From: an uncultured Thiothrix sp.
Lineage (GTDB): Bacteria > Pseudomonadota > Gammaproteobacteria > Poriferisulfidales > GCA-002705445
Direction of reading: 5' to 3'
Assembly: GCA_902595225.1 (NCBI GenBank)
Contig: CACJPG010000002.1
Location: forward strand, 65,151-129,150
DNA: 64,000 bases
Part shown: positions 18,924 to 36,512 of the stretch, piece after piece
Numbering within the stretch: the stretch's first letter is position 1
Layout: each line of letters opens with the position of its first letter
The notes under the pieces: generated by a model
The model's input: the letters and a program-made list of their open reading frames with translations, nothing else
Told to the model about the DNA's origin: nothing
Database searches by the model: none
Translations under genes and position numbers: made by a program

Positions 18924-20747
18924 ATGTGCGGTATTGTTGCAGCAGCATCACAAAATAACGTGGTAAATATATTAGCTGATGGGTTAAAACATCTAGAATA
19001 TAGAGGTTACGATTCAGCAGGCATAGCTGTTATTGAAAATGAAAATATACATAGTTATAAAAAAGAAGGACATGTTTCTGAACTAACTAGTATTCTAGGT
19101 AAAGATCTAGCCTCGAATATTGGTATAGCACATACAAGATGGGCTACACATGGAAAACCATCTGAAGCAAATGCTCATCCCCATATATCTGAAAATAGTA
19201 TCGCAATTGTTCATAATGGTATTATTGAAAACTATATTGAAATAAAAGAAAAATTTTTTAAAAACATTAAGCTAGAATCCGAAACAGATTCCGAAGTATT
19301 AGCACATCTTATAAATTTTTATGCAAAAGATAATAATATTCTAGATGCTGTACATTCTGCCTTAAAAGAAGTTAAAGGCTCTTATGCAATCGCAGTCTTA
19401 GATAAAAATAATTCTAGCGAAATAATAGTTGCGCGCCATGGCAGTCCTCTTATTATTGGTGTTGGTGAAGATTCTAATTTCATTGCGTCTGATGCTCATG
19501 CTTTAATTGAACATACAAATCAATTTATATATTTAGATGATGGCGATATGGCTTCAGTGAGTTCAAGCGAAATAAATATTTTCGATAAAGATAAAAATTC
19601 CGTAAATAGAGAAATAAAAAAAAGTAACATTTCATTAGGAAGTAATTCAAAAAATGGATTTGAGCACTTTATGCTTAAAGAAATTTTTGAACAACCAGAG
19701 GCGGTTAAAGCAACAATTCAAGACCGAATAATAAATAACTCTGTACCTAAAGAGATTTTAGGGCCAAGTGCTGAAAAATATCTTGATGGTTTTAAGGTGG
19801 TTCAAATCATTGCATGTGGAACGAGTTATCATGCAGCCTTATTAGCAAAACATTGGTTTGAAAAACTTGCTGGAATTCCCTGCCAGGCAGAAATCGCAAG
19901 TGAATTTAGATATAGGAAGCACGCTGTTCAACCTGGAACATTATCCATATGTATTTCACAGTCTGGAGAGACAGCAGATACTCTTTCGGCATTAAGACAA
20001 ATAAAAGAAGAAAAGAATTATATTGGCACCATTGCAATATGCAATGTGCCAGAAAGTTCAATTGCAAGAGAATGCGATTCAACTTTAATAACACATGCGG
20101 GTCCTGAAATCGGAGTTGCATCAACAAAGGCTTTTACAACACAATTGGTTGCCTTAATGCTTTTAATAATTGTACTCGGGAAAAATTTTGAAATTTCGGA
20201 AGAAATTGAAAAATCACTATGTGAACAATTACAAACTTTACCTGAAAAGATTAAAAGCACCTTGGATTTAGACCAAGAAATAGCAGAACTCTCAAAAATA
20301 TTTTCTAATAAGGAGCATGCTCTATTTTTAGGTCGAGGCTCACATTTCCCAATAGCCAGAGAGGGCGCTTTAAAACTTAAAGAAATATCTTATATTCACG
20401 CAGAAGCTTACGCTGCAGGCGAGCTAAAACATGGGCCGCTTGCTATTGTTGACGAAAATATGCCAGTAGTAGCGGTTGCTCCAAATAATGTTGTTTTAGA
20501 GAAACTGAAATCAAATCTTGAAGAAGTTAAAGCACGTGGTGGAAAACTTTATATATTTGCAGATAAAAAAGCTGGATTTAAAAGTGACGAGATTTCTCAA
20601 GTTTTTGAAATCGATGCACCGCTAAATCCTGTCGCTCCGATACTTTTTACCATTCCTTTGCAACTTTTAGCATATCACTGCGCCATTATTAAAGGTACAA
20701 ATGTTGATATGCCTCGCAACCTTGCCAAATCGGTTACAGTGGAATGA
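18924..20747 (+). CDS. glmS: glutamine--fructose-6-phosphate aminotransferase
   Basis: 607 aa with the N-terminal MCGIV nucleophile, two SIS domains, and the canonical C-terminus ...PRNLAKSVTVE. Confidence 0.98.
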   Translation: MCGIVAAASQNNVVNILADGLKHLEYRGYDSAGIAVIENENIHSYKKEGHVSELTSILGKDLASNIGIAHTRWATHGKPSEANAHPHISENSIAIVHNGIIENYIEIKEKFFKNIKLESETDSEVLAHLINFYAKDNNILDAVHSALKEVKGSYAIAVLDKNNSSEIIVARHGSPLIIGVGEDSNFIASDAHALIEHTNQFIYLDDGDMASVSSSEINIFDKDKNSVNREIKKSNISLGSNSKNGFEHFMLKEIFEQPEAVKATIQDRIINNSVPKEILGPSAEKYLDGFKVVQIIACGTSYHAALLAKHWFEKLAGIPCQAEIASEFRYRKHAVQPGTLSICISQSGETADTLSALRQIKEEKNYIGTIAICNVPESSIARECDSTLITHAGPEIGVASTKAFTTQLVALMLLIIVLGKNFEISEEIEKSLCEQLQTLPEKIKSTLDLDQEIAELSKIFSNKEHALFLGRGSHFPIAREGALKLKEISYIHAEAYAAGELKHGPLAIVDENMPVVAVAPNNVVLEKLKSNLEEVKARGGKLYIFADKKAGFKSDEISQVFEIDAPLNPVAPILFTIPLQLLAYHCAIIKGTNVDMPRNLAKSVTVE

Positions 20748-20776: not shown

Positions 20777-21154
20777 ATGATGAATAAATTGATAAAAATA
20801 TTTTGCAATAGTTGTCTTGTTTTTTTAACAAGTATTTCTTTTGTTTTTGCAGAAGAGAATATATCTAATACATCTTGGTATATTTCTCATAATGATGGTC
20901 ATGAATATATTTTTCAATTTAATCCAGATGGAACTTGCCTCTATTTCCAGAAAAATTCTCCCACTGGAAATACTGGAAAAATCTATGATAACTGCAAATG
21001 GGTTAGGAAAAATAAAGTTTTAGTATTTGATTCTAATAATTATTATGCGGTACACATAGGCAGAATAGAAGGAAGAAGTATGACTGGTTATCGCGTATCA
21101 AATCACGACGTAGTAAAAAAAAGTACTTTTATTGGAAGAAGGATAGATAATTAA
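20777..21154 (+). CDS. cassette 1: small secreted protein of unknown function
   Basis: 125 aa with the Sec-type signal peptide ...LTSISFVFA/EE. No promoter module of its own, so probably read through from glmS. Confidence 0.6.
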   Translation: MMNKLIKIFCNSCLVFLTSISFVFAEENISNTSWYISHNDGHEYIFQFNPDGTCLYFQKNSPTGNTGKIYDNCKWVRKNKVLVFDSNNYYAVHIGRIEGRSMTGYRVSNHDVVKKSTFIGRRIDN

Positions 21155-21183
21155 ATGAGTAAACACAATACATTGAGACCGAT

Positions 21184-21293
21184 GAACATCCTGTCCAATC
21201 AAACGAAATCAGTCACGGTGGAGTAGTTAACTTCCGACATGATGGGTCAGTCCTAATTTTACAACCTCAACAATAATCCGTAGTATTAAAAGT
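21184..21293 (+). repeat. repeat R1: type A left arm, core tcagtcacggtggagtag, right arm, promoter-like module
   Basis: gaaCATCCTGTCCAATc...tcagtcacggtggagtag ttaacttccGACATGATGGgtcagtcctaatTTTACA-17-TAGTAT-7-ATG. Confidence 0.8.
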
Positions 21294-21698
21294 ATGAAAA
21301 TTAAATTACTCACAGTTTGTTTACTCTTAGTCACCTTGCAGGTGTTTGCAGAAAATAGATTTAATTGGACGCTAATATCTACCAGCACTGCTGATGATGG
21401 AAATAAATTTTATGGTGATATAAATAGCATCAGAAAGAACAAATCAGGAAATTATGTTGTTTGGATGTTACTTAATAACGTTGAAGGAGATTCTGTTGTT
21501 ACTTCTGAAGAGTATGATTGTACTCGATTAAGATTTAGATGGGTATATGTTGAACTCTATAGTCATCATTATGGAAAAGGAAAAAAAAAATTTACTGCTG
21601 ACACAGAAGAATTAAAACCAAAAGGTTATACTGATTGGATTTATCCTAAACCCAATTCAAATAATTACCATAAAGTTAATTTCGTTTGTGAAAAATGA
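21294..21698 (+). CDS. cassette 2: secreted protein, surface-adhesin protein E (Adhesin_E)-like fold family
   Basis: 134 aa, signal peptide MKIKLLTVCLLLVTLQVFA/E. Pattern W..I...(K)FY.D..SIRKN....VVWML.N...S...EYDC...R.R.....Y..HYGKG...W.YP......VNFVC matches my recollection of the Adhesin_E domain. Paralog of 22605-23003. Confidence 0.6.
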   Translation: MKIKLLTVCLLLVTLQVFAENRFNWTLISTSTADDGNKFYGDINSIRKNKSGNYVVWMLLNNVEGDSVVTSEEYDCTRLRFRWVYVELYSHHYGKGKKKFTADTEELKPKGYTDWIYPKPNSNNYHKVNFVCEK

Positions 21699-21815
21699 TG
21701 ACGATAACCATCATGTCCATACAAACGCAATCCGTAACAGTGGAGTAGTTAACTTCCGACAGGATGGGTCAGTCCAAATTTTACAATTTCAAAATAATCC
21801 GTATTATTAAAAAAA
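21698..21815 (+). repeat. repeat R2: type A left arm, core tccgtaacagtggagtag, right arm, promoter-like module
   Basis: ATGACGATAACCATCATGTCCat...tccgtaacagtggagtag ttaacttccGACAGGATGGgtcagtccaaatTTTACA-16-TATTAT-8-ATG. Confidence 0.8.
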
Positions 21816-22193
21816 ATGAAAATTAAAATATTTATAACTTGTCTATTTTTTTTATTTTCCGCCAACAGTTTTGCAGAATGGACGGAAATAGGCAGAAATG
21901 AAAAAAATGCTTTGTATATAGATTCTGAAAGAATAAGAAAAGATAATCTTGGGCACATATATGTTTATGTTTTGATGAATCACCTTAACGATGATGACCC
22001 CCGCTCTACAATTGCCTATTTCCAATGCGATTGTGATAAATTCTCATTTAAAATTTTGAAGGAGTTTTATCATAGAAAACTAATGGGTGTTGATAGATAC
22101 GATGATTACGCTGAACCAAAACCAGAATGGAATTACATTTATCCTGAATCAGGAAATGAACTGATTTTAAAGTATGCATGTGAAAATCTCTAA
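21816..22193 (+). CDS. cassette 3: secreted protein, Adhesin_E-like family
   Basis: 125 aa, signal peptide ...FSANSFA/E, then WTEIGRNEKNALYIDSERIRKD...YFQCDCDK...W.YIYPES...YACE. Paralog of 26430-26801. Confidence 0.55.
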   Translation: MKIKIFITCLFFLFSANSFAEWTEIGRNEKNALYIDSERIRKDNLGHIYVYVLMNHLNDDDPRSTIAYFQCDCDKFSFKILKEFYHRKLMGVDRYDDYAEPKPEWNYIYPESGNELILKYACENL

Positions 22194-22308
22194 TGACGAT
22201 AACCATCCTGTCAGAAGTAGAATATTCGGTAACAGTGGAATGAGTTTCAATGGACAGGATGAGTCAGTCCTAATTTTACAATCTTAAAATAATACGTATT
22301 ATTAAAGT
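22193..22308 (+). repeat. repeat R3: type A left arm, core tcggtaacagtggaatga, right arm, promoter-like module
   Basis: ATGACGATAACCATCCTGTCAGAAGT...tcggtaacagtggaatga gtttcaatGGACAGGATGAgtcagtcc.... Confidence 0.8.
22275..22302 (+). promoter_or_regulatory. representative cassette promoter-like module: TTTACA-16 nt-TATTAT ending 6 nt before the ATG (predicted leaderless transcript)
   Basis: The same arrangement recurs in R1, R2, R3, R7, R8, R9 and R10, with the -10-like hexamer 6-8 nt upstream of the ATG and no Shine-Dalgarno. R5 has the same TTTACA-16-TATTAT, but there the next ATG lies 33 nt downstream of the conserved attaaag. Housekeeping genes in this window have GGAG-type SD sequences. 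Confidence 0.45.
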
Positions 22309-22584
22309 ATGAAAATAAAAAAACTAGTAATTTCTTTAATATTATTTTGTAATCTTGCTTATGCCGCATCTGAAGAAAAGCAAATGGAATGGATTAATGA
22401 ATGTATTACACACACACCAAACAATATCTCATATGCTAGAGCAGTAGAATATTGTGGTTGTGCAACTAGAAAATTAATGGATCGATTTACAGAAAAGCAA
22501 ATAGATAACTCTTCTGCAGAAGATATCGCAAAGAATAAGTTAATGTCTGATATTGTTGAAGAATGTAATGCTGTAATAGAATGA
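22309..22584 (+). CDS. cassette 4, ORF a: small secreted Cys-containing protein
   Basis: 91 aa with signal peptide MKIKKLVISLILFCNLAYA/A. Confidence 0.55.
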   Translation: MKIKKLVISLILFCNLAYAASEEKQMEWINECITHTPNNISYARAVEYCGCATRKLMDRFTEKQIDNSSAEDIAKNKLMSDIVEECNAVIE

Positions 22585-22604
22585 ACAAATTTTTCTACTA
22601 ATAA

Positions 22605-23003
22605 ATGAAAACCAAACTACTCACAATCTGTTTACTTTTATTTTCTTCACAGTTGTTTGCAGAAAATTTATTTAATTGGACATACATAGCAACGAGTGAT
22701 GATGGTACTAAATATTATGCAGATAAAAATAGCATCAGAAAGAATAAATCAGGAAATTATATTGTTTGGATGTTAGATAATTCCAGTAAAGGAGATTCAT
22801 TAATTGCATCTGAAGAGTATGATTGTTCTAATTTAAGATATAGATTGGTATATGCTGCACTCTATAATAATCATTATGGAAAAGGGGGAAAAATAGGTTC
22901 TTATGACACAGAGCAATTAAAGTCAATAGGCAAATATAATTGGGTTTATCCTACACCGAAAACACCTAATGACTCTAAAGTTAATTGGGTTTGCAGAAAC
23001 TAA
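22605..23003 (+). CDS. cassette 4, ORF b: secreted protein, Adhesin_E-like family
   Basis: 132 aa, MKTKLLTICLLLFSSQLFA/E. Clear paralog of 21294-21698 (ENLFNWTYIATSDDGTKYYADKNSIRKNKSGNYIVWML...EEYDC...). Confidence 0.65.
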   Translation: MKTKLLTICLLLFSSQLFAENLFNWTYIATSDDGTKYYADKNSIRKNKSGNYIVWMLDNSSKGDSLIASEEYDCSNLRYRLVYAALYNNHYGKGGKIGSYDTEQLKSIGKYNWVYPTPKTPNDSKVNWVCRN

Positions 23004-23088
23004 AGATTAAAACAAAAAAAAGAATGGGAAAAGAAAAAGAAAAAATTTATAATATTTAAGATTTTAAAAAAATTATTGCTAAAAACTT

Positions 23089-23457
23089 ATGGATTTTAAA
23101 ACTGCTGTCAAAACATGTCTTATTGAAAAATATACAACTTTTTCTGGAAGAGCATCTAGATCGGAATACTGGTATTTCACTTTATTTACAACCATAGTTT
23201 TTATATGTGCGAATATTATAGATAATGCAATAGATCCGTATAGCATATTTGGAACATTCTACTTACTTTGCTTAGTGCTTTTAATTACGCCTATTATAGC
23301 ATGTGGTGCTAGAAGACTTCATGATATTGGAAGGTCTGGTTGGTGGTTATTAATTTATCTTACAGGTATTGGTTCAATCCTCATATTTATTTGGTCAATT
23401 ATAGCGGGAACCAAAAACGATAATGAGTATGGTATAAGTACTTACATTGGTAAATAA
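23089..23457 (+). CDS. cassette 4, ORF c: DUF805-family inner membrane protein
   Basis: 122 aa with motifs F.GRASRSEYWYF and RRLHDIGRSGWW characteristic of DUF805 (YhaH/YhaI-like). Multiple TM segments. Confidence 0.75.
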   Translation: MDFKTAVKTCLIEKYTTFSGRASRSEYWYFTLFTTIVFICANIIDNAIDPYSIFGTFYLLCLVLLITPIIACGARRLHDIGRSGWWLLIYLTGIGSILIFIWSIIAGTKNDNEYGISTYIGK

Positions 23458-23560
23458 TTGCACTACCACCTCCAACTCACCTTCCATAACGGTGGAGTAG
23501 TTGCTTTTGGACAGGGTGGGTCTGTTATCTCAGGGTCAGTTCCCTATCTATGTTTTACCA
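23458..23560 (+). repeat. repeat R4: type B left arm, core tccataacggtggagtag (V to I), right arm with a 14-nt insertion
   Basis: ttgcactaccacctccaactcaccttccataacggtggagtag ttgcttTTGGACAGGGTGGgtctgttatctcagggtcagttcc.... Confidence 0.75.
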
Positions 23561-23580
23561 ATATAGTGTTTAAATTATGC

Positions 23581-23611
23581 AATACTTCGAAAAATTGCTA
23601 TAAAGAGATTA
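23581..23611 (+). repeat. second upstream element, copy T2a (AATACTTCGAAAAATTGCTATAAAGAG...)
   Basis: Shares about 28 nt with 25484-25513 and 27781-27810. Followed by a truncated copy of the atgaaaaataa... start seen at 25514. Confidence 0.6.
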
Positions 23612-23646
23612 ATGAAAAATAAGTTTTTTTAAAGAAGGATCAAAAA

Positions 23647-23973
23647 ATGATAAGTATGAAATGGGTACTTTATATTATTGGTGTATCAAGTTGGATACTA
23701 TTTTTATATCAGAATACTGCAGAGAAATATGGATTCATGTCTGGCACCTTCTTTATGAACGGATACGGATTCTTAACAGGATTAATATCAGTAATTGTAT
23801 GCATTTTTTTGATGAGTGAGTTTTATGATTATTTAGAAATACTAGGAAGTTATTTTTTATTTCTATTAATTGCTGGTGCTTTAATTGGCGGATTGAAACA
23901 TCATGCACAGGGTTTAGGTTTATTTGGTCTTGTAATAGGGTACGTTTTATTTTTTATAAATAAATTTATTTAA
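23647..23973 (+). CDS. cassette 5, ORF a: small polytopic membrane protein
   Basis: 108 aa with 3-4 hydrophobic segments. Confidence 0.55.
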   Translation: MISMKWVLYIIGVSSWILFLYQNTAEKYGFMSGTFFMNGYGFLTGLISVIVCIFLMSEFYDYLEILGSYFLFLLIAGALIGGLKHHAQGLGLFGLVIGYVLFFINKFI

Positions 23974-23985
23974 CATGTTAAGAAA

Positions 23986-24741
23986 ATGAAAACCAAACTA
24001 CTCACAATCTGTTTACTCTTATTCACTTCGCAAGTGTTTGCAGAAGAATGCAAAGGAACAGATAAATCTAAGTGGAATAGTTGCATTGGCATAATAGATA
24101 CTTTTGAAAAAATAGAAGAAACAGATACAACGGAGGTTTGGGGTAGTGAAAAAATAGAAGGAAGATATGAGGGTGGTTTTGAACAAGGGTTATTTACTTC
24201 ACAATTTGAAGAAAAAATTATTCATAAAAATATTATTGTAAACGGTAAACATTTCTCAACCAGCAATCGTGGTTTTATGACTGGAAATTTTAAAGATGGA
24301 GTGCAAATAGGTTTATGGGGAGAATGTATCACTACCAATAACAGGTACAAACAATATAATCAGTTTGAAATTGGTAACTATAATAAACACGGGATTCGTG
24401 ATGGAGTTTGGGGACGTTTTTATTATGAAACAACTGCTTTTGATGGAAGTTTTGAAAAAACAGGATGTCATAAAAAAACAGTAGAATTATTTCTTGATAA
24501 AGAAAATTTATGCTCACAAAAGAAAAACAGTCATTTTGCAAGTTTTGAAACATATCTTAATGGCGAGAAAGTATCGGATTTTAACAAACTTTCTTGCAGA
24601 GGTCCGTCTGAATTTATTAATGGTTGGTTGGATTATATATCTACAATTGATGAAGAAAAATTATATTGTGAAGATACTTCATGCAAAAAACCAAGTAATA
24701 CCGACCCAGAATATGCAGAATGGATAAAGAATTTTGAATAA
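23986..24741 (+). CDS. cassette 5, ORF b: secreted protein with degenerate MORN/YwqK-like repeats
   Basis: 251 aa, MKTKLLTICLLLFTSQVFA/EECKG...W.SC.G. This N-module is shared with 27811 and 35688. Has G.xxG-type repeats (NFKDGVQIGLWGE, NKHGIRDGVWGRF). Confidence 0.55.
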   Translation: MKTKLLTICLLLFTSQVFAEECKGTDKSKWNSCIGIIDTFEKIEETDTTEVWGSEKIEGRYEGGFEQGLFTSQFEEKIIHKNIIVNGKHFSTSNRGFMTGNFKDGVQIGLWGECITTNNRYKQYNQFEIGNYNKHGIRDGVWGRFYYETTAFDGSFEKTGCHKKTVELFLDKENLCSQKKNSHFASFETYLNGEKVSDFNKLSCRGPSEFINGWLDYISTIDEEKLYCEDTSCKKPSNTDPEYAEWIKNFE

Positions 24742-24847
24742 CTGCACTATCACCTTCAAGTCACTTCTATCACAGTGGAATGAGTTTCATTGGAAAGGAT
24801 GGGTCAGTCCTAATTTTACAATCTCAAAATAATCCGTATTATTAAAG
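24742..24847 (+). repeat. repeat R5: type B left arm (1-nt deletion), core tctatcacagtggaatga (V to I), right arm, promoter-like module
   Basis: ctgcactatcaccttcaagtcacttctatcacagtggaatga gtttcATTGGAAAGGATGGgtcagtcctaatTTTACA-16-TATTAT. Confidence 0.8.
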
Positions 24848-24879
24848 ACATAAAAATATAAGAATTATATGAGACAAAG

Positions 24880-25320
24880 ATGGGATTATTTAGTTCAAAA
24901 CAAAACATTAGTAACGAAGGGGTATTTAAAAGTATTGTTGATACTATTGGATTTTTGAACTATTTTTTTACAGAAGTAGAAAAAGAAGATTTTACTAAGA
25001 ATACCAGTGAAGGCGTAAAATTTTTTGGAAGATTTTGTTATAATTTTGATGACATGTTTTATTATGCACTTGGTCGTGCAAATATCAAATTAAATAAAGA
25101 GCAAAAGCATAATGTGAAACTTGCATGTGGTTTAATCAGGGATTCACTTTGGGAACCAGAAATAAATGAGATTAAAAATTGTGTTGAGAAATTCTCAGAT
25201 TATCATAAACAAGCAAATGGAAAGTTGATTGCAGGATCTGACCATCCGATGTTTAAGGACTCGGCAACAAAAGTATTTAGAAAAGAACTCGCAGAGCATG
25301 GCATTACTTTTGTTGATTAG
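24880..25320 (+). CDS. cassette 6: hypothetical protein without a signal peptide
   Basis: 146 aa, no hydrophobic N-terminus. One of the few cargo ORFs with neither a signal peptide nor a TM segment. Confidence 0.5.
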   Translation: MGLFSSKQNISNEGVFKSIVDTIGFLNYFFTEVEKEDFTKNTSEGVKFFGRFCYNFDDMFYYALGRANIKLNKEQKHNVKLACGLIRDSLWEPEINEIKNCVEKFSDYHKQANGKLIAGSDHPMFKDSATKVFRKELAEHGITFVD

Positions 25321-25363
25321 CAACACTATCACCTCCAAGTCACCTTCCGTAACAGTGGAGTGA
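25321..25363 (+). repeat. repeat R6: type B left arm plus core tccgtaacagtggagtga; right arm degenerate or absent
   Basis: caacactatcacctccaagtcaccttccgtaacagtggagtga, then unrelated tgttaaacagttgg.... Confidence 0.7.
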
Positions 25364-25463
25364 TGTTAAACAGTTGGTTATGTAATGGGTAAATCGTAAA
25401 AATAGAATTCAGTAAGTATAAGGGTTTTAAGATGTCAGTTTTAGGGTAGTTTAGAGAACGATT

Positions 25464-25513
25464 GGAATGAGGAAAAACTATAAAAATATTTCAAAAATTG
25501 CTATAAAGAGAAT
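25464..25513 (+). repeat. second upstream element, copy T2b
   Basis: ggaatgaggaaaaactataaaaatatttcaaaaattgctataaagagaat compared with 27761-27810 ggaataaggaagaactataaaaatacttaaaaaattgctataaaggaagt gives 43/50 identical by hand count. Confidence 0.7.
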
Positions 25514-25678
25514 ATGAAAAATAATATGAAAGAGTGTGAAGGGTGTGGAAATACAGTTGCAGTATATGCTAATAAATGCCCTAACTGCGGTGCATATACA
25601 CATAAAAGTTTTCAAATAATAGAACTTATTTTTGCAATCTTGACAGTCTCCTTCATTGTATGGTGGTTTATATTGTAA
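25514..25678 (+). CDS. cassette 7, ORF a: small zinc-ribbon protein with a C-terminal TM anchor
   Basis: Below the ORF-track cutoff. Hand translation gives MKNNMKECEGCGNTVAVYANKCPNCGAYTHKSFQIIELIFAILTVSFIVWWFIL (54 aa) with CxxC-x10-CxxC and a hydrophobic tail. Confidence 0.5.
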   Translation: MKNNMKECEGCGNTVAVYANKCPNCGAYTHKSFQIIELIFAILTVSFIVWWFIL

Positions 25679-25745
25679 TGAAATATTCCATTACAATAAA
25701 AAATATCCACACCTACAAAATAACAATTACCCGTATCACGAAAAA

Positions 25746-26396
25746 ATGAAAACCAAACTACTCACAATCTGTTTGCTCTTAGTCACCTCGCAGGTGTTTG
25801 CAGAAGAATGGGCGAATATTTATACTAATAGCGGTGATAAACTTCAAATAGCATTGCCTGACGGGTATTGTGATATTACTCAAACAAATGAAGGTAAATT
25901 TATACTTAATCACTTGAATAAGACAAAACGAAATCTTTCTATTTATAAAAATTTTGAAGCAAAAATTGTATATAATTTATGTGGAAAAAAATATGATTAT
26001 CCATGGGGTTATATATTTTTTAATAATCAAAAATATTCTTCTTCATACACACAAACAGATTTAAACAAACTTGAATCTTCCTCTTTCAATAAAACTTATA
26101 TAAATGAAATAAAAGAAAAAACAAATAAAAGTCATGATATTAATAATCAAGATATAAAAATAGAGTCAGTAGATAGACCTGAATTAGTTTGGGAGGACAA
26201 AAATGCACTGATTTTTTATACCAATATACAGGCAAATATTGAAGGGCAGAAGTTTATTGAAGAGGTAACAGGTAGCACTATTTTATTTAATGGTTACCAA
26301 TTTTCTATGTACATTTATGACAAAAAAGGCGCGCAAAATTCTCTTCATAATTCTCAGTTACTTTTAAATGCTGCTAAATCGACTAAAAGTAGGTAA
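25746..26396 (+). CDS. cassette 7, ORF b: secreted protein of unknown function
   Basis: The track ORF starts at 25656. The internal ATG at 25746 gives the conserved MKTKLLTICLLLVTSQVFA/EE signal peptide, so it is the preferred start (216 aa). Confidence 0.6.
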   Translation: MKTKLLTICLLLVTSQVFAEEWANIYTNSGDKLQIALPDGYCDITQTNEGKFILNHLNKTKRNLSIYKNFEAKIVYNLCGKKYDYPWGYIFFNNQKYSSSYTQTDLNKLESSSFNKTYINEIKEKTNKSHDINNQDIKIESVDRPELVWEDKNALIFYTNIQANIEGQKFIEEVTGSTILFNGYQFSMYIYDKKGAQNSLHNSQLLLNAAKSTKSR

Positions 26397-26429
26397 ATTA
26401 TATACTTACTAAGTAGTTACTAAGTAAAT

Positions 26430-26801
26430 ATGAAAACCAAACTACTCACAATCTGTTTGCTCTTATTCACCTCGCAAGCGTTTGCAGGATGGACTGAGGT
26501 TGGTAAAAATAGCAGTGGTACAATTTTTTATGTAGACTTTGATAGAACTAAAGAGCATAACGGTTATAAATATTTTTATATGTTAGGTGATTACTTGACA
26601 CCATATAACAATGTTTTATCAACTGAATATTATATTCAACTTGATTGTAATAAATATAGATATAGACATATCAGTTTTATATTTTATGATCAATCCATGG
26701 GTAAAGGAAACGGCAGAGTAGATAACGAAATGATGAAGTGGGAAAATATAACTAAAGGTACTATGAATTATACTGTTAGTAAAAAAGTTTGCGATCGCTA
26801 A
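26430..26801 (+). CDS. cassette 7, ORF c: secreted protein, Adhesin_E-like family
   Basis: 123 aa, MKTKLLTICLLLFTSQAFA/G, then WTEVGKNSSGTIFYVDFDR...YIQLDCNKYRYR...GKGNG...W.NI...VC. Confidence 0.6.
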   Translation: MKTKLLTICLLLFTSQAFAGWTEVGKNSSGTIFYVDFDRTKEHNGYKYFYMLGDYLTPYNNVLSTEYYIQLDCNKYRYRHISFIFYDQSMGKGNGRVDNEMMKWENITKGTMNYTVSKKVCDR

Positions 26802-26836
26802 AACAATATTAAAATATATCAGTGTTTGATGCATAA

Positions 26837-26945
26837 TTACACTATCACCTCCAGCACAAATTCCGTCACCGTAGAATAATTTTGTATGGACAGGGTGGGT
26901 CAGTCCTAATTTTACAATATTAAAATAATTGGTATTATTGAAAGA
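26837..26945 (+). repeat. repeat R7: type B left arm, core tccgtcaccgtagaataa, right arm, promoter-like module
   Basis: ttacactatcacctccagcacaaattccgtcaccgtagaataa ttttgtaTGGACAGGGTGGgtcagtcctaatTTTACA-16-TATTAT-7-ATG. Confidence 0.8.
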
Positions 26946-27701
26946 ATGAAAACCAAACTACTCACAATCTGTTTACTCTTATTTACTTCACAGGTGTTTG
27001 CAGAAGGTAAATGGACTTCAACAAATAAACCTAATTGCTTAGTATGGGATCCGGCACCTAGAGACGAACAGACTGTTACATGGTCAGGAGAATGTAAATC
27101 TGGGAAAATACATGGCAAAGGTTTATTAACATGGAATTTTAAAACAAATGGTACACCTCAAACTCAATTAAACGAAGGTGAATTTAAAAATGGACGATTT
27201 TTTGGTCGATTTAAATATACATTTGAAAATGGTGATATATATATTGGTGATGTGCATGAGGAAACTGGAGATATGCACGGACGAGGCACTTATAAATATA
27301 TCAATGGTGATAAGTACGTTGGTGAATATAAGAATGGTCTACTTCACGGACGAGGCACTGCTACCTTAGCAGATGGAGCAGAATATGTTGGAGAATTTAA
27401 AGAAGACAATATGCACGGACGAGGCACTTTTACTTTTCCTGATGGAGAACAGTACATAGGCGAGTGGAAAGAAAATGTTATGCACGGACGAGGCACTTAT
27501 AATTATGCCAATGGTGATAAGTACGTTGGTGAGTACAAGAATGACAATATGCACGGACGAGGCACTTTTACTTATCACAATGGTGATAAGTACGTTGGCG
27601 AGTGGAAAGAAAATGTTATGCACGGACGAGGCACCTACACTTTTGCAGATGGAACAAAAAAAATTGGTCAATTTAAGAATGACGAATATATCGGCAAATA
27701 A
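26946..27701 (+). CDS. cassette 8, ORF a: secreted MORN-repeat protein
   Basis: 251 aa, conserved signal peptide, then about 8 MORN units (Y.GE.KN...HGRGT..Y.NGDK). Confidence 0.8.
   Translation: MKTKLLTICLLLFTSQVFAEGKWTSTNKPNCLVWDPAPRDEQTVTWSGECKSGKIHGKGLLTWNFKTNGTPQTQLNEGEFKNGRFFGRFKYTFENGDIYIGDVHEETGDMHGRGTYKYINGDKYVGEYKNGLLHGRGTATLADGAEYVGEFKEDNMHGRGTFTFPDGEQYIGEWKENVMHGRGTYNYANGDKYVGEYKNDNMHGRGTFTYHNGDKYVGEWKENVMHGRGTYTFADGTKKIGQFKNDEYIGK
27273..27686 (+). repeat. 69-bp (23-codon) tandem repeats inside the MORN gene
   Basis: The cacggacgaggcac motif recurs at 27276, 27345, 27414, 27483, 27552 and 27621, an exact 69-nt period. Confidence 0.85.
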
Positions 27702-27760
27702 TTAAATCATCATTACTTGTTAATTATTCCATTCCTATAGTAACTTCAAAATAAATTTCT

Positions 27761-27810
27761 GGAATAAGGAAGAACTATAAAAATACTTAAAAAATTGCTA
27801 TAAAGGAAGT
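27761..27810 (+). repeat. second upstream element, copy T2c
   Basis: See T2b. Directly precedes the ATG at 27811. Confidence 0.7.
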
Positions 27811-28329
27811 ATGAAAACCAAACTACTCACAATCTGTTTACTCTTATTTACTTCACAGGTGTTTGCAGAAGAATGCAAAGGAAATTATTGGGATAATTGT
27901 TACAGCGCATACACTTTTACCGGTAAGTATGCAGGTGATAAATACATTGGCGAATGGAAGGATAACAAAATGCACGGACTCGGCACTTATACTTATGCCA
28001 TTGGAGATAAATACGTAGGTGAGTTTAAAAACGGAGATTTTCACGGACTTGGCACTTACACTTATGCCAGTGGAGATAAATACTTTGGTGAATATAAAAA
28101 TAATAACAGACATGGACAAGGCACTTACACTTATGCCAGTGGAGATAAATACTTTGGTGAATATAAAAATGATGAAAGATATGGACAAGGCACTTACACT
28201 TATGCCAACGGAGACAAATACGCTGGTGGATTTAAAAATGGCAAGTTTCACGGACAAGGTACTTACACTTATGCCAACGGAGACAAAGAAGTTGGTCAAT
28301 GGGAAAACGACGCATACGTCGGCAAATAA
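27811..28329 (+). CDS. cassette 8, ORF b: secreted MORN-repeat protein
   Basis: 172 aa, MKTKLLTICLLLFTSQVFA/EECKG..., with about 5-6 MORN units (GTYTYA.GDKY.GE.KN...HG.). Confidence 0.8.
   Translation: MKTKLLTICLLLFTSQVFAEECKGNYWDNCYSAYTFTGKYAGDKYIGEWKDNKMHGLGTYTYAIGDKYVGEFKNGDFHGLGTYTYASGDKYFGEYKNNNRHGQGTYTYASGDKYFGEYKNDERYGQGTYTYANGDKYAGGFKNGKFHGQGTYTYANGDKEVGQWENDAYVGK
27970..28310 (+). repeat. 69-bp tandem repeats inside the second MORN gene
   Basis: Unit-start codons at 27973, 28042, 28111, 28180 and 28249, period 69 nt. The units starting at 28111 and 28180 are nearly identical. Confidence 0.85.
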
Positions 28330-28438
28330 TTACTCTGTCACCTCCAACTCACCTTCCGTCACCGTGGAATAATTTTGTATGGACATGATGGGTCAGTCCT
28401 AATTTTACAATCTCAAAATAATCAGTAATATCAGTAGT
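28330..28438 (+). repeat. repeat R8: type B left arm, core tccgtcaccgtggaataa, right arm, promoter-like module
   Basis: ttactctgtcacctccaactcaccttccgtcaccgtggaataa ttttgtaTGGACATGATGGgtcagtcctaatTTTACA-16-TAATAT-7-ATG. Confidence 0.8.
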
Positions 28439-28780
28439 ATGAAAACCAAACTACTCGCAATCTGTTTACTCTTATTCACCTCGCAGGTGTTTGCGGCAGA
28501 TGTATTTGTATGTTCTTATAAAAATTATAAAAACGAGACACGTACATACACTTATATCAGAAAAGATGATGGTAAATTTGTTACCTTTTTAGACGATGTT
28601 GAAATTCCAATGGTAAAAACATATGAAGATAATACATACTTACATCTTGTAGTGTCATTTGAAAATTATTTATTCGCTAGGGTAATTAACAAAATAACTA
28701 AAAAGGTTGAGCAAGTGGGTATAGAAGAATCTAAAACATCAACTGTAGATAAAGTTTATGGAACTTGTAAGGTTAGATAA
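28439..28780 (+). CDS. cassette 9, ORF a: small secreted protein
   Basis: 113 aa, MKTKLLAICLLLFTSQVFA/A. Confidence 0.6.
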   Translation: MKTKLLAICLLLFTSQVFAADVFVCSYKNYKNETRTYTYIRKDDGKFVTFLDDVEIPMVKTYEDNTYLHLVVSFENYLFARVINKITKKVEQVGIEESKTSTVDKVYGTCKVR

Positions 28781-28823
28781 AAAAACGTAATCTACTTTAT
28801 AATAACAACTGAGGTACAAAAGT

Positions 28824-29180
28824 ATGAATATGATTGAATCTGTGACTACATGTTTAAGTAAATATTTTACGTTTGAAGGAGTTGCGACAAGACCAGAATA
28901 TTGGTGGTTCCAATTATTTTATTTCATAGTGATAATAGTCGGTATTGTGCTTGATGGTAATTCTACAAATTCCTGGGATCGAAATTATTACGGATATTGG
29001 GAACTAATATTTACATTATTATTTTTTATACCAGCAATTTCAGTGAGTTGTAGAAGACTTCATGATTTGGGTAAGTCAGGATGGTGGCAATTAATTGGGA
29101 TTACAATTATTGGTCTTATTCCATTGATTTACTGGTTTTGCAAAGAGGGAGGAGTTACAAGCAAATATTCTAGTGAATAA
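28824..29180 (+). CDS. cassette 9, ORF b: DUF805-family inner membrane protein
   Basis: 118 aa with F.G.ATRPEYWWF and RRLHDLGKSGWW motifs. Diverged paralog of 23089-23457. Confidence 0.75.
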   Translation: MNMIESVTTCLSKYFTFEGVATRPEYWWFQLFYFIVIIVGIVLDGNSTNSWDRNYYGYWELIFTLLFFIPAISVSCRRLHDLGKSGWWQLIGITIIGLIPLIYWFCKEGGVTSKYSSE

Positions 29181-29288
29181 TTGCACTATCACCTCCAACT
29201 CACATTCCGTAACAGTGGAATGAGTTCGTTTGGAAAGGGTGGGTCGGTCTGAATTTTACATTTTTTAAATATTCCGTATTATTTAAAT
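29181..29288 (+). repeat. repeat R9: type B left arm, core tccgtaacagtggaatga, right arm, promoter-like module
   Basis: ttgcactatcacctccaactcacattccgtaacagtggaatga gttcgtTTGGAAAGGGTGGgtcggtctgaatTTTACA-16-TATTAT-6-ATG. Confidence 0.8.
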
Positions 29289-29702
29289 ATGAAAATTAAA
29301 CTACTCGCAATCTGTTTACTTTTATTATCCTCGCAAGTGTTTGCGGATCCTGATTATAAGTGGAAGTATATGGCAGAAGGAAAGACTTATTTTTGGTATT
29401 GGGATAGCAAAAATTTGACTGAAAAAAATGATAATTATCTTTTGTGGGTATTATATGATAATAAATATATAGAAAAAGGTATAGGTTCTCAGGTTGCGCT
29501 AATTGAAATTGATTGTGCTTACAACAGATATAAGAATATTTACATAGAGTCTTATGATGGCCAAATGGCAAAAGGGAGAATGCTACATAAAATGAGTTCT
29601 GAAGATTTGCCAGATCATGATTTATGGAAATGGACTTTCATGATAAAAAATAAAAATATCCATAATTTATATTTTCTTTCTTATTGTGATAAAAGGAAAT
29701 AA
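29289..29702 (+). CDS. cassette 10: secreted protein, Adhesin_E-like family (divergent)
   Basis: 137 aa, MKIKLLAICLLLLSSQVFA/D, then W.Y....YFWYWDSKNL......LLWVLYDN....S.VALIEIDCAYNRYK...Y.G.MAKG...W.W....YCD. Confidence 0.5.
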   Translation: MKIKLLAICLLLLSSQVFADPDYKWKYMAEGKTYFWYWDSKNLTEKNDNYLLWVLYDNKYIEKGIGSQVALIEIDCAYNRYKNIYIESYDGQMAKGRMLHKMSSEDLPDHDLWKWTFMIKNKNIHNLYFLSYCDKRK

Positions 29703-29724
29703 TTGAATTTTAAGTGAATATAAG

Positions 29725-29830
29725 CCCCCTGTTTAAACAAACGAAATCAGTCACAGTGGAGTAGTTGCTTTTAGGAAGGATGGGTCCGTCCTAATTTTAC
29801 AATCTCAACAATAATTCGTATTATTGAAGT
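29725..29830 (+). repeat. repeat R10: degenerate type A left arm, core tcagtcacagtggagtag, right arm, promoter-like module
   Basis: ccccctgtttaaacaaacgaaatcagtcacagtggagtag ttgcttttaGGAAGGATGGgtccgtcctaatTTTACA-17-TATTAT-6-ATG. The spacer aaacgaaatcagtcac is shared with R1. Confidence 0.75.
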
Positions 29831-30190
29831 ATGAAAACTAAATTATTGATAACCTGCTTGTTATTTGCACCCTTATTAAGTTGGGGAGTAGATATGATTT
29901 CACCAATAAATTTTAATCCAACCCCTGCGAACAAGAATAAAGTAATTTCGTTTATTAAATATAATGTTAAAGAAACATATTCAAGAATTGGAATGGACAG
30001 TGAGTCAACTTTAAGAATGATGGAAGAAGAAGAGTTGAGGTGTTTTAAAGAACTTACAAAAGTACAAGATATCAATTTATTAAAGAGAGTTAAACGACAA
30101 CTTTGCAACATCGGTATGTGCACTTATTCTACTATTCTCATGATGTACAATGAAGAAGTCAGAGCGTCTAAAAAAAATCTTGAGTGGTAA
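29831..30190 (+). CDS. cassette 11, ORF a: small secreted protein
   Basis: 119 aa, MKTKLLITCLLFAPLLSWG.... Confidence 0.55.
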   Translation: MKTKLLITCLLFAPLLSWGVDMISPINFNPTPANKNKVISFIKYNVKETYSRIGMDSESTLRMMEEEELRCFKELTKVQDINLLKRVKRQLCNIGMCTYSTILMMYNEEVRASKKNLEW

Positions 30191-30203
30191 AATATAATAA
30201 AAA

Positions 30204-30548
30204 ATGAAAACCAAACTACTCACAATCTGTTTACTCTTATTTTCATCACAAGTGTGTGCAGAGACTTGGTCATGCACTTATGAGTTTAATGGCGAAACAA
30301 AAATCAAAGTTTTTTCTATTAAAGAAAATAAAGTTTATTCTAATGGAGAATTATATCAAAGTGCTAAAATACTTCTGAATAATAAAAATGTCATACACAT
30401 ATATACGAGTTATCCTCATATTGGTGATGTAACATTTTTTGCAGAAGTTTATAATAGAACCAACAAGAGATTTTCAATGGCAGCGATTAGTGCAATTAAA
30501 AATGAAAAATATGCTATTATTGAGGGTGATTGTATAATTACTAAATAA
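30204..30548 (+). CDS. cassette 11, ORF b: small secreted protein
   Basis: 114 aa, MKTKLLTICLLLFSSQVCA/E. Confidence 0.6.
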   Translation: MKTKLLTICLLLFSSQVCAETWSCTYEFNGETKIKVFSIKENKVYSNGELYQSAKILLNNKNVIHIYTSYPHIGDVTFFAEVYNRTNKRFSMAAISAIKNEKYAIIEGDCIITK

Positions 30549-30569
30549 AAATAATAAAAAGAGGATATC

Positions 30570-30875
30570 ATGGAAAAGTTTTTAACGTCACTAGGCATAG
30601 CAGGTGTTATCTTTTTTCTTCTACTTGGCATTGCTCAAATATATGTGGGATTTCTTGGTATAGAATACTTTTATGGTTCAATTTGGGCGTGGGTTGCCGT
30701 TTTTTGCGCATTTTTTCTACGTATCGTATTTCCTTGTACAATCGGATCTTATTTTGGAGCATTATACGTTTTAGAATGGGAGTGGTATTTTGCGCTAGCA
30801 TTCGCATTACCAGGTATTCTATTTATCCTTCCAGCGACAATAACTGCATTAATTTCATCATTCAACAAAAATTAA
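30570..30875 (+). CDS. cassette 11, ORF c: small polytopic membrane protein
   Basis: 101 aa, aromatic-rich, 3 TM segments, with an SD-like gaggat upstream. Confidence 0.55.
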   Translation: MEKFLTSLGIAGVIFFLLLGIAQIYVGFLGIEYFYGSIWAWVAVFCAFFLRIVFPCTIGSYFGALYVLEWEWYFALAFALPGILFILPATITALISSFNKN

Positions 30876-30932
30876 AATCAGTATTATTTACTTTTTTGGA
30901 TTTGAAAATTAAATTTAGGGAGATGGTTTTAA

Positions 30933-31229
30933 ATGGATAAAAGCATTTTTTGGATAGCGCCATTAGTTGTTTTGGGAGTTGGACTTCTTCCAATGCCCTA
31001 TGGTTATTATTTTCTATCTAGGTTAGTAGTATGTGTATGTGCAATTTATTATGCTTTGCAATTTAACGAGCATCGAGAGACAACATTAGTCTGGGTATTC
31101 AGTTTTTTTGCTATTTTATATAACCCAATTATACCTATTCATCTTGGAGCAAAAGGATTATGGATTGTTGTAAATTTAATTACTGCTGGAGTATTTTTTG
31201 CAAATAAGGATAAAATCCAATTGGGATAA
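30933..31229 (+). CDS. cassette 11, ORF d: small membrane protein (PYGYY...R...NPIIPIHLG-type family)
   Basis: 98 aa, 3-4 TM segments, SD agggag upstream. The motif layout resembles a widespread small membrane protein family. That is from memory and not verified. Confidence 0.55.
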   Translation: MDKSIFWIAPLVVLGVGLLPMPYGYYFLSRLVVCVCAIYYALQFNEHRETTLVWVFSFFAILYNPIIPIHLGAKGLWIVVNLITAGVFFANKDKIQLG

Positions 31230-31238
31230 TATGCTGAA

Positions 31239-31287
31239 GACGATAACCATCCTTTCCATATAAAAACATTCGGTAACAGTCGAATAA
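31239..31287 (+). repeat. repeat R11 (array terminus): type A left arm plus core tcggtaacagtcgaataa, with no right arm or module
   Basis: GACGATAACCATCCTTTCCatataaaaacattcggtaacagtcgaataa, followed by unrelated attattagaagtgc.... Confidence 0.8.
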
Positions 31288-31331
31288 ATTATTAGAAGTG
31301 CAAAAAAGTTCATATAGAACCTAATTAAAAA

Positions 31332-31652: not shown

Positions 31653-31958
31653 TTACAAGATGATCTCAAATCCCTCAAACATTGGGCGACCTATGTAAAG
31701 AGGCTTATTTTTACCAGCATTTCTGTGTGCTTTTTTAAACGATTCAGATTTAGTCCATAAAATGAAATCATCTTTACTATCCCAAACTGAGTGGGATGAG
31801 TATAATGTGTACTCTTTATTTGATTCACCTTTTAAGAGATGAAATTCGTTAAATCCTTTGACTTCATCCAAATAGGTTTCACGAGTTCTCCAGACTTCCT
31901 CGAATTCTTTTTCTTTTCCTAATATAATTTTAAATCTATTCATTGCAATATATTTCAT
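31653..31958 (-). CDS. antibiotic biosynthesis monooxygenase (ABM) domain protein
   Basis: 101 aa with the typical ABM/ferredoxin-like pattern (MNRFKI..GKE.EFE..W..R...L....GF..F.LL......Y...S.W.S...F..W..S..F..AH). Confidence 0.6.
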   Translation of the reverse strand: MKYIAMNRFKIILGKEKEFEEVWRTRETYLDEVKGFNEFHLLKGESNKEYTLYSSHSVWDSKDDFILWTKSESFKKAHRNAGKNKPLYIGRPMFEGFEIIL

Positions 31959-32004: not shown

Positions 32005-32289
32005 ATGAAAACCAAATTACTAAATGAAAAAGAATTTAGGGCAATCCAAAAAGCGCGAAAGTTTGTTATTTTCTTTACTTTTTTGACATTTTTATTTCTT
32101 TTTATGCTCGTGCCAATAGAGGCGATTATTGAAGAAATTATCCTTCGAAAATGGAAATGGATAATACTATTCTTATTTTGCTTACTTGGTTACTGGTTGA
32201 GTTATACGCGTCAAACATTATCTATTTTGTCGGCGTTGCCTTTTATTATTTTACTCGGGCAAGTATGGCAGTTTACTATTTATAATTGA
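32005..32289 (+). CDS. small membrane protein
   Basis: 94 aa with 2-3 TM segments. The first 18 nt (atgaaaaccaaattacta) resemble the start of the array signal peptide. Confidence 0.5.
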   Translation: MKTKLLNEKEFRAIQKARKFVIFFTFLTFLFLFMLVPIEAIIEEIILRKWKWIILFLFCLLGYWLSYTRQTLSILSALPFIILLGQVWQFTIYN

Positions 32290-36311: not shown

Positions 36312-36512
36312 TTAGGCGTCTTTTTCCGCTTTGTTCATTGCGTCAGACGATTCATCTTTACTTTCTTTTTCAGTTTTAGCGGACTCATTTGATTCCATGT
36401 AACCAGCTTGGTCGGCCTGACGATCTGGACCATTATGACTAGCACCAGAATTACAATGATTTGCAAATGAAATCGCTGAGAAAAAGTAAATTACAAACAA
36501 TAAATATTTCAT
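36312..36512 (-). CDS. small secreted acidic His/Cys-containing protein (tandem paralog 2)
   Basis: 66 aa, ...FFSAISFA/NHCNSGASHNG..., tail ending EKDA. Paralog of 36092-36289. Confidence 0.55.
   Translation of the reverse strand: MKYLLFVIYFFSAISFANHCNSGASHNGPDRQADQAGYMESNESAKTEKESKDESSDAMNKAEKDA

Follow-up and report, generated by a model that had tools for sequence, protein, structure and literature searches.

A 57-nt module encoding a signal peptide heads ten open reading frames (ORFs) between positions 21294 and 30260 of a 64-kb stretch of DNA from a contig of an uncultured Thiothrix sp.; this whole stretch is here called the window, and all coordinates refer to it. The ten ORFs lie in an array of small gene cassettes downstream of glmS, and their modules are 85–97% identical to the consensus. 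The module has sharp boundaries, is conserved down to the choice of rare codons and precedes proteins of many unrelated families. Breakpoints of homology fall at or inside it, and between orthologous genes it differs in excess of the gene bodies that follow. From these patterns we think it fairly probable that it acts as a portable export and start module, used as a homology arm for the recombinational shuffling of single genes in additive genomic islands. The copies, with their scores in a 60-nt scan, and three look-alikes are as follows.

21294–21350, + strand: module copy, 53/60; gene 21294–21698, Adhesin_E
22605–22661, + strand: module copy, 54/60; gene 22605–23003, Adhesin_E; no repeat directly upstream
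23986–24042, + strand: module copy, 58/60; gene 23986–24741, no Pfam match
25746–25802, + strand: module copy, 58/60; gene 25746–26396, no Pfam match
26430–26486, + strand: module copy, 56/60; gene 26430–26801, Adhesin_E
26946–27002, + strand: module copy, 57/60; gene 26946–27701, MORN repeats
27811–27867, + strand: module copy, 57/60; gene 27811–28329, MORN repeats; 'AAAAATTGCTATAAAGGAAGT' element upstream, not the glmS-end repeat
28439–28495, + strand: module copy, 57/60; gene 28439–28780, no Pfam match
29289–29345, + strand: module copy, 51/60; gene 29289–29702, Adhesin_E
30204–30260, + strand: module copy, 53/60; gene 30204–30548, no Pfam match
21816–21875, + strand: look-alike signal peptide, 31/60, not the module; Adhesin_E gene
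22309–22368, + strand: look-alike signal peptide, 35/60, not the module
29831–29890, + strand: look-alike signal peptide, 33/60, not the module

Scanning both strands of the whole window recovered these ten copies at 51–58/60, all on the + strand and all within 9 kb, and no copy elsewhere in the 64 kb. The score distribution is bimodal, with the next-best ORF starts at 31–35/60 and the median ORF start at 20/60. A 38-nt module pattern, with up to three mismatches allowed, matched eight times (at most two mismatches observed) and never in 100 shuffles. The original prediction had thirteen ORFs sharing this signal peptide; ten are true copies, while those at 21816, 22309 and 29831 (52–58% identity) score in the same range as two unrelated signal peptides, those at 33498 and 35688. 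Similarity among the window copies begins at the ATG and ends at nt 56–57, at the alanine in position −1 of the cleavage site VFA-x. It was also predicted to end at the signal-peptidase site, and it does so both here and in 78 non-redundant copies from outside the window. The mature parts, described earlier as unrelated, are so in that Adhesin_E proteins, MORN proteins and proteins without a Pfam match all occur; four of the ten are Adhesin_E, two are MORN and four have no match, so not all are mutually unrelated.

Conservation acts at the nucleotide level, as had been proposed. The module contains codons that are rare in this genome (ACC, frequency 0.14; CTA, 0.12; CTC, 0.04; ATC, 0.11; TCG, 0.07; GTG, 0.12), and these are identical between copies; because it is built of such codons, its nucleotide identity is not due to codon bias. 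Where two copies encode the same amino acid in codons 2–12 they share the codon with frequency 0.64–1.0, against 0.27–0.69 expected. Sharing exceeds the codon-usage expectation at codons 2–12 and 17–19 and does not at codons 13–16. Nor is the module the generic signal peptide of this stretch, because all copies lie within 9 kb and the window encodes at least 15 further proteins, predicted to be exported, that carry different ones (examples start at 20777, 33122, 33498, 34401, 35688, 36092(−), 36312(−), 36672, 37423, 37986, 38919 and 51193). Thus neither of the trivial explanations named in the original prediction, a generic signal peptide or identity at the level of codon bias, describes the window.

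Two further observations concern other protein starts in the window. The ORF at 32005–32289 starts with ATGAAAACCAAATTACT (MKTKLL), which equals the first 17 nt of a module variant, then continues NEKEFRAIQK..., an N-terminus that does not resemble a signal peptide; the syntenic long-read contig L108 (see below) has a 94-aa gene at the equivalent position, between its ABM gene and the next gene. The start of the 32005 ORF may be a module remnant or a chance match. The tandem minus-strand genes 36092–36289(−) and 36312–36512(−) have paralogous products, both small, acidic and exported (MRYLLLVLYFFSAVSFAGHC... and MKYLLFVIYFFSAISFANHC...), with a signal peptide that the two share and that is unlike the module.

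By inspection, the module is predicted to encode a Sec-type signal peptide cleaved by signal peptidase I (SPase I). The peptide is MKTKLLTICLLLFTSQVFA, cut before a variable residue, and can be divided into MKTK, LLTICLLLFT and SQVFA, followed by E. It has an n-region (MKTK), a hydrophobic core of about 11 residues, valine at −3 and alanine at −1, and the n-, h- and c-region columns are conserved in 62–107 sequences. The peptide lacks a lipobox, its Cys9 lying within the h-region behind T-I. The sole lipobox variant, in the outside locus L090 (MKTKLLTICLLLSTTLSGC), has the lipobox after the first 36 nt of the module. As to Tat export, no copy has an arginine in its first 20 residues. No Pfam signal-peptide family (YSIRK_signal, ESPR and others) was found in the window proteins, in 33 representatives of outside mature parts or in 107 database proteins.

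The module, proposed earlier to be a separate shared unit, behaves as one far beyond the window; the search for further genes bearing it found none elsewhere in the window and many in public data. Outside copies were sought with a degenerate 36-nt pattern, free at five third-codon positions, and L-numbers below denote outside records of module-bearing loci (genomes or metagenome contigs; L107 and L108 are long-read contigs). The pattern matched in six species-representative genomes, all from uncultured marine Gammaproteobacteria, whose 8-kb loci have 27–34% G+C, and in at least 100 metagenome stretches, all marine. Phage carriage of the module was considered and rejected, there being no match among 2.9 million viral contigs. 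The 107 locus records hold 135 module copies, up to four per short contig. Among the 78 copies non-redundant for the mature part, information content jumps at the ATG (+1) and drops after nt 56–57, and the upstream DNA is unrelated.

The proteins behind these copies are diverse. Mature parts of 107 complete proteins from the locus records fall into 33 BLAST clusters, whose representatives include MORN, Pentapeptide, inverse-autotransporter beta-domain (IAT_beta), Rhodanese and Adhesin_E proteins; 28 clusters have no match. A profile of the ten window N-termini was also searched against 1.84 billion cluster representatives (50% identity clusters, E ≤ 0.001). The peptide was found in 172 clusters, most matches spanning residues 1–21 only; 163 sequences were retrieved, and the 107 of these with a mature part of at least 50 aa form 48 BLAST clusters. 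A separate profile of 45-aa N-termini returned, from 79 candidates, only proteins shorter than 80 aa, which is no measure of the scale of the families. To judge by sequence clustering, then, one signal peptide in essentially one nucleotide sequence stands before about 50 unrelated families.

Could these be a single family of fast-diverging paralogues in which only the signal peptide is still recognisable? Four of the ten mature parts in the window are Adhesin_E and two are MORN, and both families also make the largest clusters in public data. We nevertheless find this scarcely credible. Among the mature parts are folds with no relation to one another (rhodanese, inverse-autotransporter beta-barrel, pentapeptide repeats, MORN, Adhesin_E), at the cleavage site identity drops from 100% to the random level in the space of one codon, and synonymous sites in rare codons are identical, which common descent cannot preserve while the rest of the gene decays. 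Also very improbable is an artefact, whether mis-assembled repeats or a signal peptide shared by most exported proteins of the organism. Many metagenome contigs do end at or inside the module, as a repeat that breaks assembly would give, and this genome was inspected over 64 kb only. Against that, copies recur in a single-cell genome, in metagenome-assembled genomes (MAGs), in two long-read contigs and in contigs from several marine metagenome projects; the window's exported proteins with other signal peptides number at least 15, and only 172 of the 1.84 billion representatives match.

In L004 (JBELEM010000044.1, a 'Hellea sp.' MAG) the 60 nt upstream, the module and gene nt 60–240 are 100% identical to L005, L007, L014 and others, which are contigs from gammaproteobacterial MAGs and metagenomes; the L004 contig was probably mis-binned in an alphaproteobacterial MAG.

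Three agreeing kinds of evidence point to exchange, the first being gene bodies that recur behind different upstream DNA. In six orthologue pairs the first 143–180 nt past the module are 96–100% identical and the 60 nt upstream are unrelated (25–53% identity). In the same pairs the module differs at 28 of 342 sites against 14 of 858 in the body (odds ratio 5.4, p = 2e-7). The body of window gene 23986, for example, is 99.4% identical to L073_1916, the module differs at 6 of 57 positions and the upstream DNA is unrelated. The reverse arrangement also occurs. L027_778 and window gene 25746 are identical from −70 through +60 (in a shared block of 347 nt, 98.8%) and unrelated beyond, where one encodes Adhesin_E and the other an orphan protein. 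Between L049_1600 and L100_1531 identity is complete from −70 to +22, after which the rest of the module differs and the encoded proteins are unrelated.

BLAST blocks start within 9 nt of the ATG on either side (−9 to +9); they stop close to the stop codon or else some 46 nt inside the repeat that follows. Between loci, 20 of 105 internal ends of blocks of at least 90% identity lie within −10 to +65 of a module start, a zone that makes up 2.2% of the sequence; this is an enrichment of about 9-fold (p = 1e-13). Breakpoints thus concentrate in the conserved tract and the two sides have different histories, the pattern of shuffling described for the staphylococcal lpl genes (below), although part of it comes from short-read contigs. 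Recombinational shuffling, one of the explanations put forward in the original prediction, therefore has direct backing: the same bodies behind unrelated upstream DNA, the same upstream DNA and module before unrelated mature parts, and block ends enriched in the module.

Two long-read contigs were checked because short-read contigs can be chimeric at a 60-nt repeat. L107 (0.58 Mb) has five modules in its array and L108 (1.15 Mb) has six. Their flanks (atp-glmU-glmS on one side, ABM-YtoQ-DUF2721 on the other) are 93–97% identical to the window; the array content differs. The bodies of window genes 22605, 28439 and 29289 recur in these contigs at 88–95% identity behind different upstream sequences, and homology sets in at −3, +1, +10 or about +33 to +37. 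The 28439 body is present in both contigs with different upstream DNA. For 29289 the block in common with L108 begins at about +33 to +37. The gene body of 22605, which has no repeat directly upstream in the window, is preceded by one in both L107 and L108. The comparison of allelic arrays that had been suggested for chimeric junctions at the cleavage site thus placed junctions at or inside the module.

Other copies are decayed or altered within the module. L098 has a degenerate module remnant at the edge of a 1.9-kb insertion, and modules are truncated at nt 36–38 in L008 417, L032 1777 and L065 307. Decayed copies include module genes with a stop after 19–24 codons (L011 671, L016 94, L037 3886, L056 987), and L055 563 is also in the decayed set. 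Taken as sequence remnants, the decayed genes indicate rapid array turnover. In L090 2234, L035 272 and L082 532 the first 36 nt of the module are kept and a different h/c-region follows, which suggests crossovers or grafts inside the module.

We propose the following mechanism. In marine Gammaproteobacteria with small, AT-rich genomes, the module would have been joined to many accessory proteins of the periplasm or cell surface that are unrelated to one another. One crossover would fall inside a module and the other in an inter-cassette glmS-end repeat or in the next module, and such a double crossover would move single gene bodies between contexts. Each arriving gene would receive a working start codon and export signal, and the exchange would build and reshuffle additive islands downstream of glmS, as well as act at the other sites where the module occurs. 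The exchange is presumably homologous recombination of the RecA type rather than site-specific. New proteins may first gain the module through rare illegitimate joins at c-region microhomology (TTTGCAGAA), a sequence that two signal peptides other than the module, at 20777 and 21816, also contain. The surplus of synonymous conservation in nt 1–36 would reflect a nucleotide-level need for an A/C-rich, G-free, unstructured mRNA start that is leaderless or lacks a Shine-Dalgarno (SD) motif.

Several points weigh against this mechanism. Most junction examples come from short-read metagenome contigs, which may be chimeric at the 60-nt repeat, and only the class in which the same gene body follows different upstream DNA is backed by long-read contigs. 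A module of 57 nt is short for homologous recombination. (In favour of the mechanism, exact tracts of 25 nt or more are common to 21 of the 45 pairs of window copies, and about 25 nt is the minimum that general recombination in Escherichia coli uses efficiently.) Conservation at synonymous sites varies along the module, nt 1–36 and 49–56 being conserved and nt 37–48 at or near the codon-usage expectation, which recombination alone does not predict. Finally, two copies from one locus differ about as much as two from separate loci (7.4 versus 7.9 differences, p = 0.26), so that there is no local homogenisation. On these figures within-genome concerted evolution was rejected, and the gene conversion proposed earlier, taken as homogenisation within one genome, is not supported; they point instead to a well-mixed pool of module variants.

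Host divergence bears on the same question. The glmS gene adjoins module genes in many loci, and the GlmS proteins range in identity to that of the window from 98% down to 80%, 76% and 52% (L006, L062 and L063). At 52% the module still scores 54/60, and pieces of the boundary repeat and of a second upstream element are present. Such a module beside so diverged a GlmS implies either cassette exchange across diverged hosts or a very strong nucleotide constraint, and this requirement counts with the points just listed. The module is also found at other sites: one array abuts a tRNA gene, and one conserved module gene follows alaS-lysC-csrA.

Homologous mature proteins, moreover, can carry either the module or another signal peptide. 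In the window a conserved MORN protein (35688–36005, syntenic in L107) and a rhodanese (36672–37103) have signal peptides of their own, and homologues of both families elsewhere carry the module (e.g. the rhodanese L085_764). Synteny of the module-bearing rhodaneses (L085, L080, L003) with the gene at 36672 was considered and rejected, given 45–51% protein identity and no common flanks, so the comparison says only that either signal peptide can be used.

Selection on the mRNA offers another reason for the identity. Here the first ~36 nt would be the initiation region of a leaderless or SD-less message with a 5′-terminal AUG, and recombination would be a by-product. We regard this as rather unlikely as the explanation, and it overlaps recombinational shuffling rather than excluding it. 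Much in the start-site context suits it. At positions left free by the search pattern the commonest base in nt 1–36 has a frequency of 0.73–0.97, and in the same copies synonymous sites in nt 37–48 are near the codon-usage expectation (third positions at nt 39–51, 0.51–0.72). A −10-like hexamer stands 6–7 nt before the ATG in three upstream elements: the glmS-end repeat (TATTAT), the L063 variant (TATAAT), which belongs to a distant lineage, and the TGCTATAAA element. Positions 4–25 are G-free in 66 of the 78 copies, and predicted folds leave the first 22 nt unpaired. SD motifs precede only 10 of the 78 module genes and 13 of 40 core genes of the window (counted as a 4-mer SD within −18 to −4). 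Initiation in this organism therefore probably relies largely on something other than SD pairing, so far as motif counts can tell, and leaderless initiation, one of the causes suggested in the original prediction, or SD-independent initiation on an unstructured A/C-rich start is plausible from the sequence.

On the other side, an unstructured start needs no single exact sequence, and other genes of the window start differently. The module folds no differently from shuffled sequence (z −0.4 to +0.4). The hexamer is at the right distance in only 31 of the 78 copies (about 6 per position elsewhere), and promoter-like matches in the AT-rich array are no more frequent than in shuffles. This selection also leaves the clustering of breakpoints in the module unexplained. 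A palindrome within the module, CACCTCGCAGGTG (nt 39–51), showed no covariation (positions 42 versus 48, p = 0.39).

The boundaries between cassettes are marked by a conserved repeat of 110–150 nt that starts with a copy of the last glmS codons. Its repeated core consists of the last ~20 nt of glmS and ~20 nt downstream, and about ten copies lie between the cassettes. These and the other upstream elements are as follows.

26862–26945, + strand: glmS-end repeat running directly into a module ATG; TTTACA-16 nt-TATTAT, the −10-like hexamer ending 7 nt before the ATG
21209–21293, 21731–21815, 22226–22308, 24766–24850, 28355–28438, 29206–29288 and 29747–29830 (all approximate): further repeat copies
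23483–23521, 25346–25366 and 31270–31290: partial repeat copies
27760 to about 27810–27817, + strand: second type of element found upstream (CTATAAAAATACTTAAAAAATTGCTATAAAGGAAGT); its extended −10-like TGCTATAAA lies 6 nt ahead of the ATG
23560–23617 and 25463–25520: related copies of the CTATAAAAATACTTAAAAAATTGCTATAAAGGAAGT element

The CTATAAAAATACTTAAAAAATTGCTATAAAGGAAGT element also precedes module genes in L006, L011, L031, L046 and L094. Five of the ORFs considered in the original prediction (22605, 23986, 25746, 26430, 30204) were said not to be preceded by the glmS-end repeat; this is right for those five, and the count is six of the ten copies, since 27811 also lacks a full repeat. 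At 25746 the 3′ part of the repeat survives as a degenerate remnant.

The glmS-end repeat may be an att-like site, to judge by its sequence, and one may ask whether the module is part of the recognition site of an integron-like or serine-recombinase system for site-specific recombination. Cassettes are bounded by the repeat, whose core is surrounded by imperfect inverted repeats (e.g. ACCATCCTGTC...GACAGGATGAGT), and the occurrence of boundary repeat and module beside glmS genes with only 52–80% protein identity suggests targeted insertion. In addition, an ORF of 65 aa with a 'Recombinase' match lies ~40 nt upstream of module genes in several loci. We still judge site-specific recombination at the module improbable. 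Breakpoints are spread over about +1, +10, +22, +33 and +50 to +60 with no single position, and many module genes are internal to cassettes with no boundary repeat nearby. All copies are direct repeats, and the hairpin potential of the boundary repeat is weak (z −0.8 to −2.0, and +0.3 to +0.5 for one copy). Pfam scans found no integrase or recombinase domain among the window ORFs from 20.7 to 42.6 kb (the array and 11 kb beyond), the gene lists of the annotated L107 and L108 regions include none, and a simple-motif search of the module-bearing loci gave no full-length recombinase. Homologous exchange through the module is the reading we prefer.

Two features of these elements may be recorded separately. 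The repeat has left arms of two kinds: one reads '...GATAACCATCCTGTCC...' and is the complement of GGACAGGATGGGT further downstream, and the other reads '...CACTATCACCTCCAACTCACC...'. The conserved 65-aa ORF (MGYRKISTFLNRSGIKSERGKKFTNSSVHSVLKRKKERD...) was recognised in L006 at 6975–7169(−) by Pfam PF07508 'Recombinase' (22.8 bits, cutoff 21.1). It is also present in L062, L044, L011, L037, L072, L009 (two copies), L054 (two copies) and L094, is 72–100% identical between loci and often ends ~40 nt ahead of a module ATG. No intact copy is present in the window, which shows just the apparent 3′ flank of the element. To judge by its sequence, the ORF may be left over from a cassette inserter or may encode a small DNA-binding accessory of one.

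A wider reading joins these parts, and we offer it as tentative: the promoter-bearing boundary repeat, the leaderless start and the 57-nt module might together form a mobile 'export chassis' spread across deeply diverged hosts. Gene bodies recombined behind it might then, though this is doubtful, be at once transcribed, translated without an SD motif and exported, as on an integron platform that recombines inside coding sequence. It is likewise possible, with no great confidence, that the first ~36 nt are under nucleotide-level selection as a ribosome-loading region, as a minimal recombination tract, or as both.

The window as a whole has ~31% G+C, and its start is close to a replication origin, with a gene order that includes dnaA(−), rnpA, yidC, mnmE/G, rsmG and parAB. 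After the parAB region come the atp operon, glmU and glmS. No tRNA was found in the window, and no Rfam family reaches its gathering score over its whole length. The array and its borders are as follows.

18924–20747, + strand: glmS, from ORF and translation; glmS ends were compared across loci
20777–31290, + strand: array of ~11 small cassettes (additive island) between glmS and the ABM gene, delimited by repeat positions
31653–31958, − strand: ABM-family gene that closes the array

All genes in the array are small and on the + strand. With its ~10 copies of the glmS end between cassettes, a fixed site and variable content, it has the marks of an additive flexible genomic island; the syntenic loci L107 and L108 have the same flanks and a different content and order of the array.

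Some cassette components other than the module also recur. Genes for DUF805 membrane proteins (23089–23457 and 28824–29180) lie in separate cassettes, have a 64-nt stretch in common at 78% identity and, lacking a signal peptide, are a second recurring component. The two MORN genes contain 69-nt tandem units (27272–27722 and 27969–28281), eight copies across both at 63–77% identity to a reference copy. These units are a further internal recombination substrate within the array.

Few parts of proteins normally evolve as fast as signal peptides or depend as little on exact sequence. Here one is near-constant, down to rare synonymous codons, before ~170 protein clusters of abundant ocean bacteria, and its edges are points of exchange. 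If recombinational shuffling through the module is true, it gives a testable mechanism for the one-gene-at-a-time turnover of surface and periplasmic proteins in streamlined bacteria, which carry few classical mobile elements, and the mature domain rather than the whole gene can be the unit of exchange. The module is in any case a sequence tag by which flexible exported proteins can be recovered directly from metagenomes. If its start is indeed leaderless, it would be a natural compact expression and export module, and the export chassis, if true, would be a bacterial counterpart of exon shuffling.

We searched the literature (for the peptide string, for identical or conserved signal peptides on unrelated proteins and for glmS islands of SAR86 and Pseudothioglobus) and these searches gave no account of the module. 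Among documented mechanisms the nearest is that of the lpl tandem lipoprotein cluster in a genomic island of Staphylococcus aureus, where a nucleotide stretch conserved in every ORF was proposed as the place where homologous recombination reshuffles the variable parts on either side, so that the unit of evolution is not the ORF (Tsuru & Kobayashi 2008, PMC2568036). The lpl genes, however, are all paralogues and their conserved stretch is mid-ORF, whereas the module is at the 5′ end with unrelated families downstream. Copies of the module, moreover, are pooled across hosts with GlmS identities down to 52%.

In the vsp, vlp, vsa and vpma loci of Mycoplasma and the erp and mlp loci of Borrelia, a near-identical 5′ region including the signal peptide is where recombination swaps mature parts. 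Those are lipoprotein signals for signal peptidase II in host-associated bacteria, serving antigenic or phase variation, often with a dedicated recombinase, inversions and a single expression site. The module is instead of the SPase I type, each copy has its own start, the copies are direct repeats with no recombinase found nearby, and the host is free-living and marine.

As an island, the array resembles the additive islands of 'Ca. Methylopumilus', in which tRNA-Lys repeats separate small tandem cassettes mostly of unknown function (PMC10872708). In both, the 3′ end of a target gene is repeated between cassettes beside the conserved gene; here the target is glmS and not a tRNA gene, and no common coding module heading the cassette genes is described in the main text of that paper, where the term 'signal peptide' does not occur. 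Integron arrays share with the window small, mostly orphan genes in one orientation, a conserved, possibly structured repeat and a fixed chromosomal point. No IntI or attI was found here, however, and by the features examined the array is not an integron; glmS and the ABM gene lie on either side of it, its repeat is a copy of the glmS end that apparently has its own promoter, and junctions fall inside coding sequence.

Polymorphic toxin loci (CdiA-CT, Rhs, TpsA, MafB) likewise have a conserved coding junction at which recombination exchanges unrelated downstream domains. Their constant part is a large delivery domain and their orphan cassettes lack a start, in contrast to the 19-residue signal peptide and complete genes seen here. 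One signal sequence before many mature proteins is also known from the YSIRK, KxYKxGKxW and ESPR motifs and from the conotoxin and frog-peptide superfamilies. In the bacterial motifs it is the amino-acid sequence that is conserved, for targeting, and not the synonymous sites, which the module conserves too; the conserved signal sequences of animals arise by gene duplication together with intron-exon structure. Four features set the present case apart: a constant part that is no more than an SPase I signal peptide, unrelated folds behind it, complete genes in the same orientation, and divergent free-living marine hosts.

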